Source: a virus
DNA length: 64,000 bases
Strand: one strand, 5' to 3'
IMG/VR virus record: IMGVR_UViG_3300035002_000022
Location: 6,192 to 70,191 of that record
A program made the translations under genes and the position numbers. Numbering within the stretch: the first letter of the stretch is position 1; every line of letters begins with the position of its first letter. This document shows positions 2,792-30,548 of the stretch, one piece after another. A model generated the notes under the pieces. That model saw only the letters and a list, made by a program, of their open reading frames with translations, did not search any database and was not told the DNA's origin.

Positions 2792-3020
2792 GTCGGCAAC
2801 CCCGCACTGAAGTGACGGGGCTTCAGGCGCAAGCCTAAGCCATGCTGACCAGATCACTCGCAAGAGTAGCCGTTAGTGGAGTCACGACACCCTGGGATGC
2901 GTGCTAGTCCCCTGCTCTGTCGCTGTCAGTTAAACAGTTCTAAGGTCACTGGAACAGTGCTTTCAGCCTAACAAGCTCCACTAACAAGATCGAAGCAAAC
3001 ATTACATTCCCATAGAAGAG
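2792..3020 (+). ncRNA. omegaRNA (HEARO-like) scaffold of IscB
   Basis: Upstream of iscB; ACACCCTGGGATGCGTGCTAGTCCCCTGCTCTGT and AACAAGATCGAAGCAAACATTAC segments resemble HEARO/omegaRNA. Confidence 0.75.
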
Positions 3021-3028
3021 ACGCTCCA

Positions 3029-4303
3029 ATGTCTAACTTTGTTTTTGTCCTCGACACCCACCACAAACCGCTCAACCCTTGCAAACCAGGAGTAGCGCGT
3101 TCACTCTTAACCAACGGGAAAGCTGCCGTTTTCAGGCGCTATCCGTTCACCATCATCCTGAAAAAGTCTGTAGCTGCTGACCCCTTACCCCTCACTCTGA
3201 AGCTCGACCCCGGTTCTAAAACGACTGGTATCGCTTTGCTGTCGGGTGATGCTGTAATCTGGGCGGGTGAACTTACTCATCGCGGGCAAGTCATCAAAGC
3301 GTCTCTAGATTCCCGTCGATCCATGAGACGTGGACGACGCAGCCGCCATACTCGCTACCGTCAAGCTCGTTTCTTGAACCGTACCCGTCCTGATGGTTGG
3401 TTAGCGCCTAGCCTTCGGCATCGGGTGTTGACGACGCTGACATGGGTAAAACGGATTAACCGTTTTACCCATGTCAAAGCACTCTCACAAGAGCTTGTGC
3501 GGTTTGACTTGCAAAAGCTTGAGAATCCAGAGATCAGCGGGGTTGAGTATCAGCAAGGTGAACTTGCTGGCTATGAAGTGCGTGAATACTTGCTCAATAA
3601 ATGGGATCGAAAGTGTACCTACTGCGGCAAAGAAAATGTGCCGCTCCAAGTGGAACACATCCAGCCCCGTGCCAAAGGTGGCAGTAACAGGATCAGTAAC
3701 CTGTGCTTGGCTTGCGAACCTTGTAATACGAAAAAAGGGACTCTAGACATCAAGGTGTTTCTAGCGAAAAAACCAGAAGCCCTTAAACGAGTCCTGGCAC
3801 AAGCAAAACGCCCATTGAAGGATGCAGCAGCGGTTAACTCTACCCGCTGGGCATTGTTCAACGCACTCAAGGCGACAGGGCTACCCGTGTCAGTGGGATC
3901 GGGAGGACTCACTAAGTTCAACCGCACACGTCTCAACCTGCCTAAGACTCACTGGCTGGATGCTGCTTGTGTGGGTGAAACGCTCACACTGACAGTGTTG
4001 ACTACGCAACCGCTGCTTATCAAAGCGACCGGGCAAGGTTCGCGGCAGATGTGCAGAACCGATAAATACGGATTCCCCAGTCGTTATGTCCCCCGGTTAA
4101 AGTTTGTGCAAGGCTTCCAGACTGGCGATATTGTGCAAGCGATTGTCACTACCGGGAAGAAGATTGGCACCTATGCAGGACGTGTGGCTGTGCGTTCTAG
4201 CGGTTCGTTCAACATCTCGGACAAATCTGGCTTGGTGCAAGGCATCAGTTACAAAGCCTGCAAAGTGACGCAACGCAAAGACGGCTATGGCTACGCACTC
4301 TGA
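3029..4303 (+). CDS. iscB: RNA-guided endonuclease IscB
   Basis: PLMP-like start (VFVLD..KPLNPC), RuvC-I DPGSKTTG, Arg-rich bridge helix RRSMRRGRR, RuvC-II ELVRFD, HNH CTYC..EHIQP..NLCLACEPCN, RuvC-III HWLDAAC. Confidence 0.95.
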   Translation: MSNFVFVLDTHHKPLNPCKPGVARSLLTNGKAAVFRRYPFTIILKKSVAADPLPLTLKLDPGSKTTGIALLSGDAVIWAGELTHRGQVIKASLDSRRSMRRGRRSRHTRYRQARFLNRTRPDGWLAPSLRHRVLTTLTWVKRINRFTHVKALSQELVRFDLQKLENPEISGVEYQQGELAGYEVREYLLNKWDRKCTYCGKENVPLQVEHIQPRAKGGSNRISNLCLACEPCNTKKGTLDIKVFLAKKPEALKRVLAQAKRPLKDAAAVNSTRWALFNALKATGLPVSVGSGGLTKFNRTRLNLPKTHWLDAACVGETLTLTVLTTQPLLIKATGQGSRQMCRTDKYGFPSRYVPRLKFVQGFQTGDIVQAIVTTGKKIGTYAGRVAVRSSGSFNISDKSGLVQGISYKACKVTQRKDGYGYAL

Positions 4304-4377
4304 CCGACTTTAATCAGTGTTTTTGTTCTTATTCCGCTTAAAAGACGAGGGTTTCCCAAAGGATTTTTTCACAACAA

Positions 4378-4416
4378 AACAGGGGCGATCGTGTTTAGTG
4401 CGATCGCCCCTGTTTT
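4378..4416. terminator. bidirectional intrinsic terminator between iscB and the RHH gene
   Basis: Perfect 14-bp stem AACAGGGGCGATCG/CGATCGCCCCTGTT with A/T tails. Confidence 0.7.
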
Positions 4417-4431
4417 CTATTGCGACAACCT

Positions 4432-4716
4432 CTAATTGTTTGATTTCAGGCTTTTCAGATAAGCGATTGCTTCATTCTGCTTATCAGATGGCAAAGAATC
4501 TAGCAGCGACTTGATTTCAGACCGGGCTATGGATTCATCCCACCAATTAATTTTGTTGTCTTCCTCAATCAAGATAGGCATTCCACGCTCAACCGCTTGA
4601 GCTAAAACTTCAGCGATCGCTACGTTGGTTTTAGCTGCCAACTTCCGAGCGGCATTGTTTAAGCTGTCGCTAATCCGAATCTTGACTTCGTTTTTTGCCA
4701 CTATCCTGTCTGCCAT
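4432..4716 (-). CDS. ribbon-helix-helix regulator divergent from parM
   Basis: EVKIRISDSLNNAARKLAAKTNVAIAEVLAQAVERG fits the RHH pattern. Confidence 0.7.
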   Translation of the reverse strand: MADRIVAKNEVKIRISDSLNNAARKLAAKTNVAIAEVLAQAVERGMPILIEEDNKINWWDESIARSEIKSLLDSLPSDKQNEAIAYLKSLKSNN

Positions 4717-4820
4717 CTTTAGGTTCCTATTATCTCATTTGAGATGATTTTAACCTGCATCCCCAAAAAGAACCCCTCAAACGGGGTTGACTGAGGGGCA
4801 GATTGTGCTATCTTCAATTT

Positions 4821-4860
4821 GTAACCACAGGTAGCCACTCGTCACCACCTGTCACCACCC
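4821..4860 (+). repeat. parC-like iteron array, 4 x 10 bp
   Basis: GTAACCACAG GTAGCCACTC GTCACCACCT GTCACCACCC in exact 10-bp phase upstream of parM. Confidence 0.75.
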
Positions 4861-4878
4861 GTTGAAATTAGGAGGATT

Positions 4879-5862
4879 ATGGGCGCGACTACGGCAATCA
4901 AGCCAAAGACTGAAAATTTGATCAGGGAGACGGTCGCTTTTGATGGCGGCAATCGCACGATTCAGTGGATTGACGCGCTAGGCATGGTGCATACAATCCC
5001 TTCGTTCATCAAATTCATTGATCCTACTTGGCAGGAGATTCAGCCATCGCACAACAGCGTGGTGATTGAGCACGAAGGACAGACCTTTGTACTTGGGCAG
5101 GCAGCGAAGGAAGAGGACGGCAAGCCTATTTTTGAGGCTGGCAAAATCAGCCTTGCACCGAAGCTTGTACTGGCAGCGTTACAACCGAATCCAGGGGAGG
5201 ACGTTGTACGGATTGAGCGACTATTGCTGGCACTACCAAGCTCTCGTGTCACTGAAGATTTGGAAGTCCTCAAGTCGATCGAGGGTACGCACGAATTTAC
5301 CCGCGATGGGCAGCGTATCGTTGCAACTGTCGGTCGTGTGGTTCCAGTTGATGAAACAAAAGCGGCTCATGCTCGTGCTGTTAAAGATCGGCTCTTCAAG
5401 TCTGATACCAAGCTCAACGGAGTTCTAGATCTAGGTGGGGGCACGGCTATCGCTCGTCTTTATAAAACAGATGGCTCCATCAAGCGCGATATGGATGTTA
5501 TTTTGCAGGGTACTGACGCTCTGGCAGAAGCAATTTCAGCACGAATCAACCACAAGTTAGGGCACACAGCGCAGGCGTGGGCTGTGATGGATGGTATTGA
5601 ACGTGGCGACTACGCAATTGGTGAAAATGGTCAGAGCTTCAAAGATGCATTTGATGACGCACATGCCGAATGGTTGACCAACATCCGGCAGAAGATTGGC
5701 AGTAAGTGGAAGCCGCTAAATCAATCGGGTCAGATTGGTGAAGTGCTCATCATCGGTGGTTCTGCCCCTTTAGCAAAACCACTGGAAGAGTTAACTAAAG
5801 GTCGATTTTTTGTTGCTGATATGCCTCAAGTGATCTCTATTCGTTCCATGCCTCTGCTATGA
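4879..5862 (+). CDS. parM: ParM/StbA-like actin-fold partition ATPase
   Basis: Phosphate-1 DGGNRTIQ, phosphate-2 DLGGGT and adenosine IIGGSA motifs; 327 aa. Confidence 0.85.
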   Translation: MGATTAIKPKTENLIRETVAFDGGNRTIQWIDALGMVHTIPSFIKFIDPTWQEIQPSHNSVVIEHEGQTFVLGQAAKEEDGKPIFEAGKISLAPKLVLAALQPNPGEDVVRIERLLLALPSSRVTEDLEVLKSIEGTHEFTRDGQRIVATVGRVVPVDETKAAHARAVKDRLFKSDTKLNGVLDLGGGTAIARLYKTDGSIKRDMDVILQGTDALAEAISARINHKLGHTAQAWAVMDGIERGDYAIGENGQSFKDAFDDAHAEWLTNIRQKIGSKWKPLNQSGQIGEVLIIGGSAPLAKPLEELTKGRFFVADMPQVISIRSMPLL

Positions 5863-21480: not shown

Positions 21481-21509
21481 TTGACAGGTACTAACTAATT
21501 AGTAATAAT
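21481..21509 (+). promoter_or_regulatory. rightward promoter of cassette A
   Basis: TTGACA at 21481, then an AT-rich but imperfect -10 (TAATAA). Confidence 0.45.
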
Positions 21510-21590: not shown

Positions 21591-21854
21591 ATGACACCCG
21601 CAACCGCTCAAGTCTCTCCTGCTAAGCGCTTTACCAGCCTTCCTTTGTCCGCTCCACGCCCGATCGCTACTCCTCCGCAAGTCCGTCACATTGTCACCCT
21701 TATCAACCGACGCACTGAGGATGAGCGCACCCTGACCATCACGACCAAGACCGATCGCTTCACCGATGTGATCCGCGAGATTGCTCATCAGAAAGTGATC
21801 AACGGCTTGATGGGTTACGAGATTTGGGAAACCCTCTCAGAACCTGGCTTCTAA
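21591..21854 (+). CDS. hypothetical protein, cassette A gene 1
   Basis: 87 aa; AGGA RBS. Confidence 0.6.
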   Translation: MTPATAQVSPAKRFTSLPLSAPRPIATPPQVRHIVTLINRRTEDERTLTITTKTDRFTDVIREIAHQKVINGLMGYEIWETLSEPGF

Positions 21855-21927
21855 CATCCTCTACTTGCTGCACGGGTGAGCCTCCTCACCCCTCCTTTAC
21901 TCACTGCACTTTTAGAGGAATAGAACC
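21855..21927 (+). ncRNA. structured intergenic RNA motif, copy A
   Basis: TCCTCTA/TAGAGGA outer stem covering the RBS, TGCA/TGCA, inner GGGTGAG/CTCACCC; homologous to 28743-28813. Confidence 0.6.
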
Positions 21928-22212
21928 ATGCACCTGACCTATAAAGATGTTTTGCCGATTACGCGCCGTGCCTTTAACTTCACTCAGCGACTGCTCTACG
22001 CTCATTCTCAACCATACAAGGATTGGCTGATCATACCGACAGCCACACCAGAAGGGCGTTTTGCCTTCCGTGTCTTTGACCCCGATGGCATGGATTGGAC
22101 TGATCCGTATGGCGAAAACTACGTTTCGCTTACTGCTGCCCTAGAGATGGGTGAGCACTACATCAACCTGCAACTGGCGGAGTTAGAGGAGTCGTTACGT
22201 GAATCAGACTAA
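21928..22212 (+). CDS. hypothetical protein, cassette A gene 2
   Basis: 58/94 identical to 28458..28742 by manual alignment. Confidence 0.8.
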   Translation: MHLTYKDVLPITRRAFNFTQRLLYAHSQPYKDWLIIPTATPEGRFAFRVFDPDGMDWTDPYGENYVSLTAALEMGEHYINLQLAELEESLRESD

Positions 22213-22963
22213 CCCCTACCAGTTTCCGCAACCGAAGTACAAAGCGGGTCAGCATATCCAGACTGAGTGGCGCACTGATGACACAAAAGAACTGGTGATC
22301 GAACAGGGCGTAATCATTGCGCTGACCTATACCGATTACGAAGCCGATCGGCATCATTACGAATCCGGCTTCACCTACCACGTGCAGTTTTACAAGCCGC
22401 GTGTCTTTGTTGATGACGTACCAGAGAACGATATTGAAATCATTGGAGACATTGCTATGAGCCAATCTACTGCTACATCGCGTCAGTACAAGTTTCCACA
22501 ACCTAAGTTTGAGGAAGGTCAACATGTCCAGACCCCAGGAGGCAATTGCGGCGTGGTGTCTGCCTTTACCTACACGACCGACACAGAAGATTGTCGCCTT
22601 GAGCCTGGTTTCAATTACCGCATTGATTTTTATAAGCCTATTCAGATGAGCGATGTGTCGCACGAAAGCAAGCTCTTTCCACTAGATGAGAGAGGCGCGA
22701 TGGAGCGTTTGATCATTGCCGTACCTGAATCTGTACCAGTGCCTAAGTTTCAACTCTTTGAGGAGGCTTTCTACGGCAAGCACAAAGGGGTGATTGTAGC
22801 GATGGCTTATGAAAATCCGTTTGAAGCGCTGCGGCATAACTCGGAACCCGGTTGGCGTTACGACTTAAGCTATTCGCTCAATCGGACTCCGCTAGAAGCT
22901 GTATCTGTCAGTGAAGATGACACTCTGATCTATGAAGACTCGCTAAGCCGTTGTAGCTGTTAG
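22199..22963 (+). CDS. three-repeat small beta-barrel (SH3/KOW-like) protein, cassette A gene 3
   Basis: Three PKY/PKF..G..I/V...GF/W.Y units; paralogue of 27977..28471. Confidence 0.75.
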   Translation: MNQTNPYQFPQPKYKAGQHIQTEWRTDDTKELVIEQGVIIALTYTDYEADRHHYESGFTYHVQFYKPRVFVDDVPENDIEIIGDIAMSQSTATSRQYKFPQPKFEEGQHVQTPGGNCGVVSAFTYTTDTEDCRLEPGFNYRIDFYKPIQMSDVSHESKLFPLDERGAMERLIIAVPESVPVPKFQLFEEAFYGKHKGVIVAMAYENPFEALRHNSEPGWRYDLSYSLNRTPLEAVSVSEDDTLIYEDSLSRCSC

Positions 22964-22987: not shown

Positions 22988-23017
22988 AAGCCCGGTAGAT
23001 TCACGTCTACCGGGCTT
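22988..23017. terminator. bidirectional terminator shared by cassette A and the pilin
   Basis: AAGCCCGGTAGA/TCTACCGGGCTT 12-bp stem. Confidence 0.75.
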
Positions 23018-27926: not shown

Positions 27927-27951
27927 GCCCGTAGATCATTGATCTACGGGC
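27927..27951. terminator. hairpin terminator of cassette B
   Basis: GCCCGTAGATC-att-GATCTACGGGC; similar stem to 22988-23017. Confidence 0.65.
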
Positions 27952-28471: not shown

Positions 28472-28742
28472 GTACCATCTCCTCTAAATCAGCCAAATGG
28501 ACGTTGACCCAGTGTTGCGCCATTACTAAGGCAGCTTCAGCAGAGCAGTACGTTTCGCCGTACATATCCTCGTGCCGATCGCCATCGGGATCGAACACCA
28601 CAAAAGCGAAACGACCATCAGGCGTGACGGTAGGGACGATTAGCCAATCCTGATAAGTCTCAGCGTGGCTATAGAGCAGGCGTTGCGTCAGGTTGAAACC
28701 AAAGCGGGTGATTTCGGATAAGTCTTCGTAAAGTAAGTGCAT
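28458..28742 (-). CDS. hypothetical protein, cassette B gene 2
   Basis: Paralogue of 21928..22212; same 14-bp overlap with the next gene. Confidence 0.8.
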   Translation of the reverse strand: MHLLYEDLSEITRFGFNLTQRLLYSHAETYQDWLIVPTVTPDGRFAFVVFDPDGDRHEDMYGETYCSAEAALVMAQHWVNVHLADLEEMVRESD

Positions 28743-28813
28743 CGTTCTAAGTCCTTCTAAAAGTGCAGTGGGTAAGGAAGGGGCTAGGTGCCCCTGTTGC
28801 AGCAGGTAGAGGA
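28743..28813 (-). ncRNA. structured intergenic RNA motif, copy B
   Basis: TCCTCTA/TAGAAGGA, TGCA/TGCA, inner AGGGGC/GCCCCT. Confidence 0.6.
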
Positions 28814-29044
28814 TTAGAACCGTGCAGCGTGACCTCTGCGCCAGCCATTCATGTAGTCAGCGTTGCTGTAAAGCGAACCACGTAAACCCAGGTTGTTAAA
28901 CCCATCGCGAAAGCCAGCACTTTCCATTTCATCAGGCGATATCTGACGGGCACGGACAAGAGCAAGATTAAGACTCGGATCAGAGGAGCCGTAGAGAATG
29001 GTTGCGGTTTCTACGGTCTTGGAAGGGGTGATTGCTTGAGGCAT
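28814..29044 (-). CDS. hypothetical protein, cassette B gene 1
   Basis: 76 aa; not visibly similar to cassette A gene 1. Confidence 0.55.
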   Translation of the reverse strand: MPQAITPSKTVETATILYGSSDPSLNLALVRARQISPDEMESAGFRDGFNNLGLRGSLYSNADYMNGWRRGHAARF

Positions 29045-29121: not shown

Positions 29122-29150
29122 ACTATATCTATTTCTATGCAGATAGTCAA
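29122..29150 (-). promoter_or_regulatory. sigma70-type promoter of cassette B
   Basis: TTGACT-17 bp-TATAGT. Confidence 0.65.
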
Positions 29151-29594: not shown

Positions 29595-30548
29595 ATGACT
29601 GACTTTGACACGGCTAAATTCTTTGTGGGAGATCTATGCCCTCACAATCATTTTTGGCAAGGTGAACCGCGATCGTTGCGTTACACAAAAGATCGTGGCT
29701 GCGTTGAGTGCAAGAAAGCTTATCACCAGCGCAACAAAGAACGCATCCTAGCCAAAAAGTCTGAATACCACAGAGAAAACATTGATAGCAGGAAGGCTTA
29801 CAATAAGCAATACATTGACAAGAACCTAGAGAGGATAAAGGCTCAACAAAAAGAGTATCGTTTAGCGAACAAAGATAAAATTACAGCTAGAAGCATTGAA
29901 TACAGGAGAAAAAATAGAGAAAGAAAGCTTGAATACATGCGTCGATATTACGCATTGAACAAAGACAGAATAAATGAATACAGCAGAGCGTATCATCATC
30001 GAAACGCTGACAGAAACAACGCCTATAAAAAAGCTTGGCATAGAGCAAATAGGCAGCATGTTTTAGATCAGAAAAAACTGGATCGAAAGCTGAATCCACA
30101 GAAGTATAAAGAAAAAGACCGGGAAAGGTATTCCAAGCACAGAGAGACTTGTCTAGCTAGAAATAAAGCTTATCGGCAGACAGAAAGGGGAAGACTGGTA
30201 CGAAGGCAACTTGAAAGAAAGAGAGAGGCGGTCAAGAAGGGCAACCATAGCGCCAAATACATCCCTGAACAACTATTGTCGCTTCGTCAAGAGTTCGGCA
30301 ATTTATGCGCTTATTGTCAATCGGGCGGAGCCAAAACTATGGATCACTTCATACCAGTCAGCAAGGGCGGATCTGATGTTTTAAGCAATTTACTCCCTTG
30401 TTGCTGGTCGTGCAACAGCAGCAAGCAGGATAAAGACCCAAAAGAATGGTATTTTAGTCAGTCGTTTTCTCAGAAAAAGCGGTGGGCTAAAATTCTAAAA
30501 GTGCTAGGAAAGACGGATAGCAACTACTTGGTACTGCCTTTGTTGTGA
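29595..30548 (+). CDS. HNH endonuclease with a basic repetitive helical region
   Basis: CAYC..TMDHFIPVSKGGSDVLSNLLPCCWSCNSSK. Confidence 0.9.
   Translation: MTDFDTAKFFVGDLCPHNHFWQGEPRSLRYTKDRGCVECKKAYHQRNKERILAKKSEYHRENIDSRKAYNKQYIDKNLERIKAQQKEYRLANKDKITARSIEYRRKNRERKLEYMRRYYALNKDRINEYSRAYHHRNADRNNAYKKAWHRANRQHVLDQKKLDRKLNPQKYKEKDRERYSKHRETCLARNKAYRQTERGRLVRRQLERKREAVKKGNHSAKYIPEQLLSLRQEFGNLCAYCQSGGAKTMDHFIPVSKGGSDVLSNLLPCCWSCNSSKQDKDPKEWYFSQSFSQKKRWAKILKVLGKTDSNYLVLPLL

Follow-up and report, generated by a model that had tools for sequence, protein, structure and literature searches.

What is the RNA that lies between genes 1 and 2 in a pair of small prophage cassettes, and how might it act on them? 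The question arises from the window (the whole stretch of DNA analyzed here, 64,000 nucleotides of IMG/VR record IMGVR_UViG_3300035002_000022). A first-pass annotation had described two copies of an undescribed-looking cis-regulatory RNA that hides a ribosome-binding site (RBS), and suggested that it works as a riboswitch, as a thermosensor, in response to a protein, or by being opened by ribosomes that end on the upstream gene. We find that the element, about 75 bases between genes 1 and 2 of both cassettes, is a real, selected and uncatalogued intercistronic RNA structure. The explanation that fits best, in which we have about even confidence, is that a leaky terminator-like hairpin is nested inside a helix that would occlude the RBS of gene 2, and that ribosomes terminating on gene 1 would open this helix (translational coupling by RNA unfolding).

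Each cassette consists of a promoter, a small gene 1, the element, gene 2, gene 3 and a terminator, and cassette 1 has a divergent HTH gene (Table 1). A predicted promoter with a strong sigma-70-like match is located ~80 nt upstream of the first ORF in each cassette. In both, the stop codon of gene 2 overlaps the GTG start of gene 3 (a GTG...TAA overlap). A Pfam scan of the cassette proteins gave zero matches.

Table 1. Positions in the window of the cassette features and of the parts of the element; helices are listed as 5′ strand / 3′ strand.
Feature	Position	Strand	Sequence or description	Basis
Divergent regulator gene, 73 aa	21196..21417	-	HTH_3 / Cro-C1-type	Pfam HTH_3, E 8.6e-07
Sigma-70-like promoter, cassette 1	21481..21509	+	TTGACA, 17-nt spacer, AATAAT	consensus match only, 11/12 matches
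Gene 1, cassette 1, 87 aa	21591..21854	+	ends ...PF-stop (TTCTAA)	small-family profile, predicted fold
Element, copy 1	21849..21930	+		fold, covariance model
Copy 1 P1	21849-21853 / 21921-21925	+	UUCUA / UAGAA	fold
Copy 1 P2	21857-21863 / 21913-21919	+	UCCUCUA (anti-SD) / UAGAGGA (SD)	fold
Copy 1 P3	21869-21872 / 21905-21908	+	UGCA / UGCA	fold
Copy 1 P4	21874-21891	+	GGGUGAG / CUCACCC, loop CCUC	fold
Copy 1 3′ bulge	21892-21904	+	13 nt, C/U-rich	fold
Copy 1 gene-2 start	21928	+	AUG	
Gene 2, cassette 1, 94 aa	21928..22212	+	without Pfam or fold match	
Gene 3, cassette 1, 254 aa	22199..22963	+	three repeats of ~80-aa domain (YxFPQPKY...GQH...)	
Canonical hairpin terminator, end of cassette 1	22988..23017	called on -	same hairpin directly 3′ of gene 3	terminator scan
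Canonical intrinsic terminator, end of cassette 2	27927..27951	-		terminator scan
Gene 3, cassette 2, 164 aa	27977..28471	-	repeat-domain protein, two repeats	
Gene 2, cassette 2, 94 aa	28458..28742	-	paralogue of gene 2, cassette 1	
Copy 2 gene-2 start	28742	-	AUG	
Element, copy 2	28740..28819	-		fold, covariance model
Copy 2 P1	28819-28814 / 28750-28745	-		fold
Copy 2 P2	28813-28807 / 28759-28752	-	SD strand UAGAAGGA	fold
Copy 2 P3	28801-28798 / 28767-28764	-		fold
Copy 2 P4	28795-28779	-	AGGGGC / GCCCCU, loop ACCUA	fold
Gene 1, cassette 2, 76-aa ORF	28814..29044	-	ends RF-stop (TTCTAA)	
Sigma-70-like promoter, cassette 2	29122..29150	-	TTGACT, 17-nt spacer, TATAGT	consensus match only, 10/12 matches

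Both copies are present where the annotation placed them and adopt the same fold, an extended hairpin that also dominates the suboptimal structures. The predicted minimum free energy is −24.4 kcal/mol for copy 1 (21849–21935, plus strand; z −4.7, 0 of 200 shuffles as good) and −22.6 kcal/mol for copy 2 (28819–28735, minus strand; z −3.3, 1 of 200 as good). The 5′ strand of P1 (UUCUA) comprises the last sense codon of gene 1 and the first two bases of its stop codon (TAA, 21852–21854 in copy 1), and the 3′ strand (UAGAA) sits just before the AUG of gene 2. The outer stem that had been proposed to pair with the Shine-Dalgarno (SD) strand is seen in the folds of both copies, as P2. Helices P1 to P3 are the same in both, and the sequence of P4 is unrelated between them; the inner hairpin was thus correctly described as replaced yet still pairing. 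It has 6–7 bp in each copy, 5–6 of which are G-C pairs. Read-through or frameshifting of gene 1 was also considered and was rejected, as the in-frame extensions differ (22 versus 9 codons).

The paralogy of the two cassettes is old. Identity between the 94-aa proteins is 62%, and synonymous sites in their genes are saturated (third-codon identity of 44%, four-fold sites 46% identical, NG86 dS undefined). The adjacent spacer of 71–73 nt, which holds the element, is 75% identical. Thus, the element is under purifying selection in this lineage. Best conserved between the saturated paralogues is the 3′ strand of the lower helix, and 21895–21918 is one of seven stretches of the 1.4-kb cassette alignment that contain 20-nt windows with at least 90% identity. 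Detectable similarity starts at TTCTAA, as had been noted, and the upstream ORFs are at noise level (~55% DNA and 28% protein identity).

The boundary of the 94-aa and repeat-protein genes (22193–22221; 28477–28449, minus strand) is a second coupling junction under strong constraint, and may have a signal of its own. Here, a 19-base run from 22196 is identical between the saturated paralogues, and nearly the same run occurs in L008 (~605–625).

The claim that the element is uncatalogued was borne out by Rfam searches. At the gathering score, the only match in the whole window was HEARO (2792–3005), with none at the element, and at E ≤ 10 the two element loci gave noise matches only, none passing. 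MAFFT misaligns the inner hairpins of the two copies, and therefore a covariance model (CM) was seeded from copy 1 alone and then iterated (R1 to R3). Four full-length copies were identified beyond the two in the window, one in a genome of the same genus (G411) and three on metagenome contigs (L037, L010 and L011). The model series recovered copy 2, L010 and L011; R2 found L037 at E 1.7e-11 before L037 joined the model, and R3 found G411 at E 3.4e-15. The two matches in G411 occur in identical 3-kb stretches and were counted as one copy. These stretches (L040 and L041; G411:C70:29665-32744 and 131866-134945) are 100% identical and 102 kb apart on one contig, and represent either a recent large-scale duplication or repeated assembly of one circular element.

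In the six-copy alignment, 94.5% of cells pair, compared to 45–56% with slid partners. Covariation had been claimed from the two window copies, and across all six copies 9 of 23 pairs have changed on both sides (5/7 in P4, 4/7 in P2, none in P1 and P3). The counts are suggestive and fall short of statistical proof, given six sequences from about five lineages in an alignment fitted to the model. Covariation in P2 is limited by the need to keep the SD, and the Phe-stop codons of gene 1 also dictate the 5′ strand of P1. Six G-U wobble cells favor a sense-strand RNA over a DNA palindrome. Two features originally described as conserved hold over a shorter range. The UGCA stem (P3) is kept in the closest copies, weakened in L037 and absent in L010 and L011. 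The C-rich single strand (the 3′ bulge) is also conserved in the closest copies, and is merely a U/C tract in wider relatives (CCUUUACUCAC in copy 1, UUGUUUUGUCAUC in L037, UUAGUUCACUU in L010).

The element occurs twice in its own 6.1-Mb genome (by BLAST and CM). A CM search of 150 related genomes and 150 genomes sampled from the phylum found it, beyond its own genome, only in G411. A pattern scan of IMG/VR for the conserved 3′ strand yielded 33 matches, none of them full-length; the sole partial match was weak (L070, 15 bits, E 0.9). Upstream of the element is a member of the 87-aa family in copy 1, L037, L010 and G411, and the 76-aa ORF in copy 2. Downstream is the 94-aa gene, in the window only, or a repeat-domain protein (L037, G411 and L010). 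The element behaves like a portable junction and is apparently transferred as a unit from one gene pair to another.

Control by the 94-aa protein, one of the mechanisms first suggested, is not supported. The element precedes other genes, and is present in G411, a 99% complete genome in which a search with the 94-aa profile found no homologue. These observations argue against this protein as a required trans-factor. The 94-aa family is very rare, and a scan of genome contigs gave weak partial matches only (L006 and L007). Comparison of the AlphaFold model (pLDDT 88) with the PDB yielded no fold match at E ≤ 0.001, and no RNA-binding fold was recognized. Distant relatives include long proteins (P0005, with 565 aa, P0012 and P0015) with 5–9 repeated matches to the core (WLIVP...FDPDG).

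Some 25 small proteins with a ...LDCNxPF-stop ending make up the family of the 87-aa ORF. Profile scans of metagenomes found no relatives with a two-sequence profile and 14 loci with a 13-sequence profile. Genes of this family adjoin divergent HTH genes, and genes for KilA-N, Bro-N and Rad52 are nearby; one member is on an IMG/VR viral contig. The 87-aa protein has a predicted beta-beta-alpha-beta fold (AlphaFold pLDDT 81); the model has no PDB fold match at E ≤ 0.001, and an RNA-binding fold was not recognized. In about 16 of 19 family lineages, a GC-rich hairpin of unrelated sequence starts 7–26 nt after the gene-1 stop. In 12 of 19 lineages, the 55 nt that follow the stop give a better fold than 95% of their dinucleotide shuffles (~1 lineage expected by chance; mean z −2.2). 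Therefore, the replaced-yet-pairing inner hairpin is a general positional feature of the gene-1 family. This was overlooked by the first-pass annotation, as was its resemblance to a terminator in some relatives. Other arrangements also occur: the anti-SD is behind the hairpin in L013, and L014 and L015 lack an adjacent hairpin.

The 76-aa ORF of cassette 2 was not detected with the 87-aa family profile and has one known homologue (P0030); it appears to be either unrelated to this family or very diverged from it. In the family alignment (A7), 12 of 13 members end in Phe-stop (TTCTAA, TTCTAG or TTTTAA), and the remaining one (L021/P0026) is two residues longer after the Phe. The unrelated-looking 76-aa ORF also ends in Phe-stop (28816–28814). 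Either coding dictates the 5′ strand of P1, or the RNA is the reason why the C-terminal Phe is retained.

The computed cost of opening the SD-to-AUG region is 12.0 kcal/mol for copy 1 and 12.6 kcal/mol for copy 2, above 98–99% of shuffles, as predicted for a hidden RBS. It falls to 6.7 and 4.4 kcal/mol, respectively, with a ribosome footprint on the upstream stop. Opening energy replaced the probability of SD pairing, which is a weak test against shuffles because C/U-rich spacers pair with any SD. In L010, L011, L012, L019 and L021, opening costs are no higher than those of shuffles because the C/U-rich spacer pairs readily with any purine SD, and strong SD occlusion is specific to the window copies. 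The anti-SD strand starts 0–3 nt after the gene-1 stop and lies 0–9 nt behind it. Where the element is absent, the junction is tight. In L008, which carries the nearest relative of the 94-aa protein (P0003), the stop codon of the upstream ORF falls within the SD, 11 nt ahead of the ATG; L035, which carries the closest relative of the 76-aa ORF, has TTCTAGccATG in place of the element. Elsewhere in the cassette, junctions overlap (GTG...TAA), in keeping with coupling.

On transcripts that read through the inner hairpin, the lower helix would pair the stop-codon region and the CCUCU anti-SD with the SD strand and the bases before the AUG, and the buried SD would prevent free 30S subunits from starting on gene 2. 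A ribosome terminating on gene 1 would cover and melt the 5′ strand of this helix. The SD, 60 nt downstream, would then be free for a second ribosome, so that coupling would occur by RNA unfolding across the 71–73-nt spacer. Opening by ribosomes that end on the upstream gene is the best fit of the four mechanisms first suggested, given the location of the stop in P1 and the modelled effect of the footprint. An RNA-unfolding model has been described for rpmI-rplT (+52 nt spacing, the textbook case), MS2 and f1, in which the spacer gives a second ribosome room to bind during the time that the first keeps the helix open (PMC12548453). As in E. coli rpmI-rplT, MS2 coat-lysis and f1 genes VII-IX, the downstream RBS is in a helix whose partner strand is at the end of the upstream ORF, and the spacer is sufficiently long (+52 nt in rpmI-rplT, +71 to +73 nt here). 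Unlike those systems, the anti-SD is just after the stop and not within the ORF, a distinct terminator-like hairpin is enclosed by the helix, the element recurs as a portable unit with different gene pairs, and the coupling is a prediction. Conservation of the CCUY loop, and of a 3′ strand that is almost unchanged among close copies, goes beyond the needs of the coupling model. Also counting against it are the lack of compensatory change in P1 and the restriction of strong SD occlusion to the window copies.

The second component of the preferred reading is the inner hairpin. Immediately 3′ of gene 1, its GC-rich stem and U/C tail would form a hairpin like that of a terminator. In L037 (UUGUUUUGU), G411 (UUCUUUUCC) and L017 (UUCCUUUUGUUG), P4 is followed by a tail that is a canonical U-tract. 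The tails in the window (CUCCUUUA and UCCUUACC) have 3–4 U in 8 nt, below the U-tract criterion of at least 5 of 8, and a terminator scan of the window called the cassette-end terminators and not the inner hairpin of either copy. Both points count against this component. The hairpin is probably leaky in the window copies, and probably results in more gene-1 than downstream message or protects the 3′ end of the gene-1 transcript. In cyanobacteria, which lack Rho, just one in five or so transcription units ends at a canonical terminator (PMC12642595). Thus, a weak or non-canonical termination signal at the element is plausible.

As with the intrinsic terminators or attenuators that follow the first gene of phage early operons (lambda cro-nutR-tR1 region), a GC-rich hairpin with a pyrimidine- or U-rich tail is located directly behind the first small gene, beside a divergent HTH repressor gene, and its stem changes freely in sequence but continues to pair. 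Unlike the lambda region, the window copies lack a proper U-tract, and neither a boxA/boxB-like consensus nor an N-like protein was identified. A Rho-dependent mechanism of the tR1 type cannot apply because cyanobacteria lack Rho (PMC12642595).

The hairpin could also be a terminator or 3′-end stabilizer and nothing else, so that it sets the ratio of gene-1 to downstream message or guards the end of the gene-1 mRNA. The overlap with the SD would then have no regulatory role, and the lower helix would merely lengthen the hairpin. The hairpin after the stop is the sole feature common to ~16 of 19 lineages, three relatives have the canonical U-tracts listed above, and SD occlusion is within compositional expectation in most relatives. 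This simpler account is nonetheless unlikely, as the 3′ strand of the lower helix is the part best conserved between saturated paralogues, P2 pairing survives changes on both sides in 4 of 7 pairs, and the window tails are U-poor.

The loop sequence raises the possibility of a protein-responsive site. A CCUC, CCUU or CCUUC loop occurs in seven lineages (copy 1, or Wc1, G411, L037, L010/L011, L039 and L030) and is kept despite changes in the stem. Unpaired bases in the close copies are conserved beyond the needs of pairing, and the element follows the first gene of an operon under HTH control. The hairpin with its CCUY loop and the pyrimidine tract might be bound by a phage or host factor that controls read-through or translation; candidates include the small protein of gene 1 and an antiterminator that would work as one does at lambda nutR/boxB, behind cro. 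We consider this improbable. An RNA-binding fold was not recognized in the 87-aa or 94-aa proteins, copy 2 has another gene 1 and another loop (ACCUA), and a pyrimidine loop arises simply from a G-rich 5′ arm and a C-rich 3′ arm. It is equally doubtful that the CCUY-loop hairpin and the G-free pyrimidine tract form the recognition site of a dedicated factor (the beta-beta-alpha-beta protein of gene 1 or an antiterminator). If they did, the factor would control read-through in cyanobacteria, which lack Rho, making the system a cyanophage equivalent of lambda nut or HK022 put, and the SD-hiding helix would be a second lock.

RNase III cuts irregular hairpins with an asymmetric internal loop in the lambda N leader and between the early genes of T7, and processing of the lambda N leader relieves RBS occlusion. 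The element calls these sites to mind: P1 to P4 are coaxial, the 13-nt internal loop is one-sided, and the location is between cistrons of a phage-type operon. Cleavage of the ~23-bp irregular helix, hypothetical here, would give the gene-1 RNA a protective hairpin and release the RBS of gene 2. Unlike in the T7 and lambda sites, the length of double-stranded RNA is not conserved among relatives (the helix is much shorter in L010 and L011), and such processing is very improbable.

There is only a slender chance that the element is a mobile or DNA-level palindrome (a MITE- or REP-like insertion, or a recombination linker at a module boundary) with the RNA fold as a by-product. It has inverted repeats at its ends, is missing at the corresponding junctions in the nearest relatives (L008 and L035), has different flanking genes among copies and, in copy 2, gives a weak model score on the antisense strand. 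These features are offset by the scarcity of copies in the genomes searched and by location, which is always the same (behind the same gene family or at homologous positions). Neither a target duplication nor a flanking direct repeat was seen at either copy, and the six wobble cells would be mismatches on the other strand.

A ligand-sensing riboswitch or RNA thermometer merits almost no credence: the SD is sequestered by an anti-SD strand, as in SD-sequestering riboswitches and thermometers (Rfam families, ROSE, fourU), and the window copies share a conserved unpaired strand, but the element is a single extended hairpin without a junction, ligand-pocket architecture or Rfam match, the unpaired strand varies beyond the close copies, the downstream genes differ and have no metabolic link or consistent function, and the structure is too stable for thermal melting (−23 to −24 kcal/mol in total), with a flat in silico probability of SD pairing from 15 to 65 °C (0.94–1.00 in copy 1, 0.65–0.71 in copy 2).

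With the preferred reading of a terminator-like hairpin within an RBS-occluding helix, the element would be a compact natural case of two stacked inter-cistron controls. The source is cyanobacterial prophages, where termination and operon-internal control are poorly understood (PMC12642595). Given its apparent movement as a unit, it is a candidate portable part for coupled two-gene expression in cyanobacteria. The distribution is narrow (a single genus and a handful of metagenome contigs), and translational coupling by RNA unfolding, the probable mode of action, is already known; the general importance of the element is therefore modest.

Mobile-element and nuclease genes occur around the cassettes and their relatives. 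In several relatives, a TnpB-looking gene (IS605 OrfB-like N-terminus, MRLTHQYRL...) starts 50–76 nt after the hairpin (L018:2121-3347; L030, ~2757 onward; L022:1497-3356, a 619-aa protein with a TnpB-like start). A Pfam-annotated OrfB_IS605/Cas12f-like gene is located ~1.3 kb downstream of the element at L012:4528-5694. The spot behind the gene-1 hairpin may be a favored IS200/IS605 insertion site; the window tail contains TTAC. HNH-type endonuclease genes recur beside cassettes (353 aa after the L010 cassette, 4252–5313; 317 aa beside cassette 2, 29595–30548), and a 158-aa ORF after the G411 cassette (L040:530-1006) is nuclease-looking by eye only. Elsewhere in the window, a full-length HEARO RNA (Rfam RF02033, 134.9 bits; 2792–3005, plus strand) was identified directly upstream of a 424-aa ORF (3029–4303). 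IscB-type HNH nucleases and their guide RNAs are usually arranged in this way.
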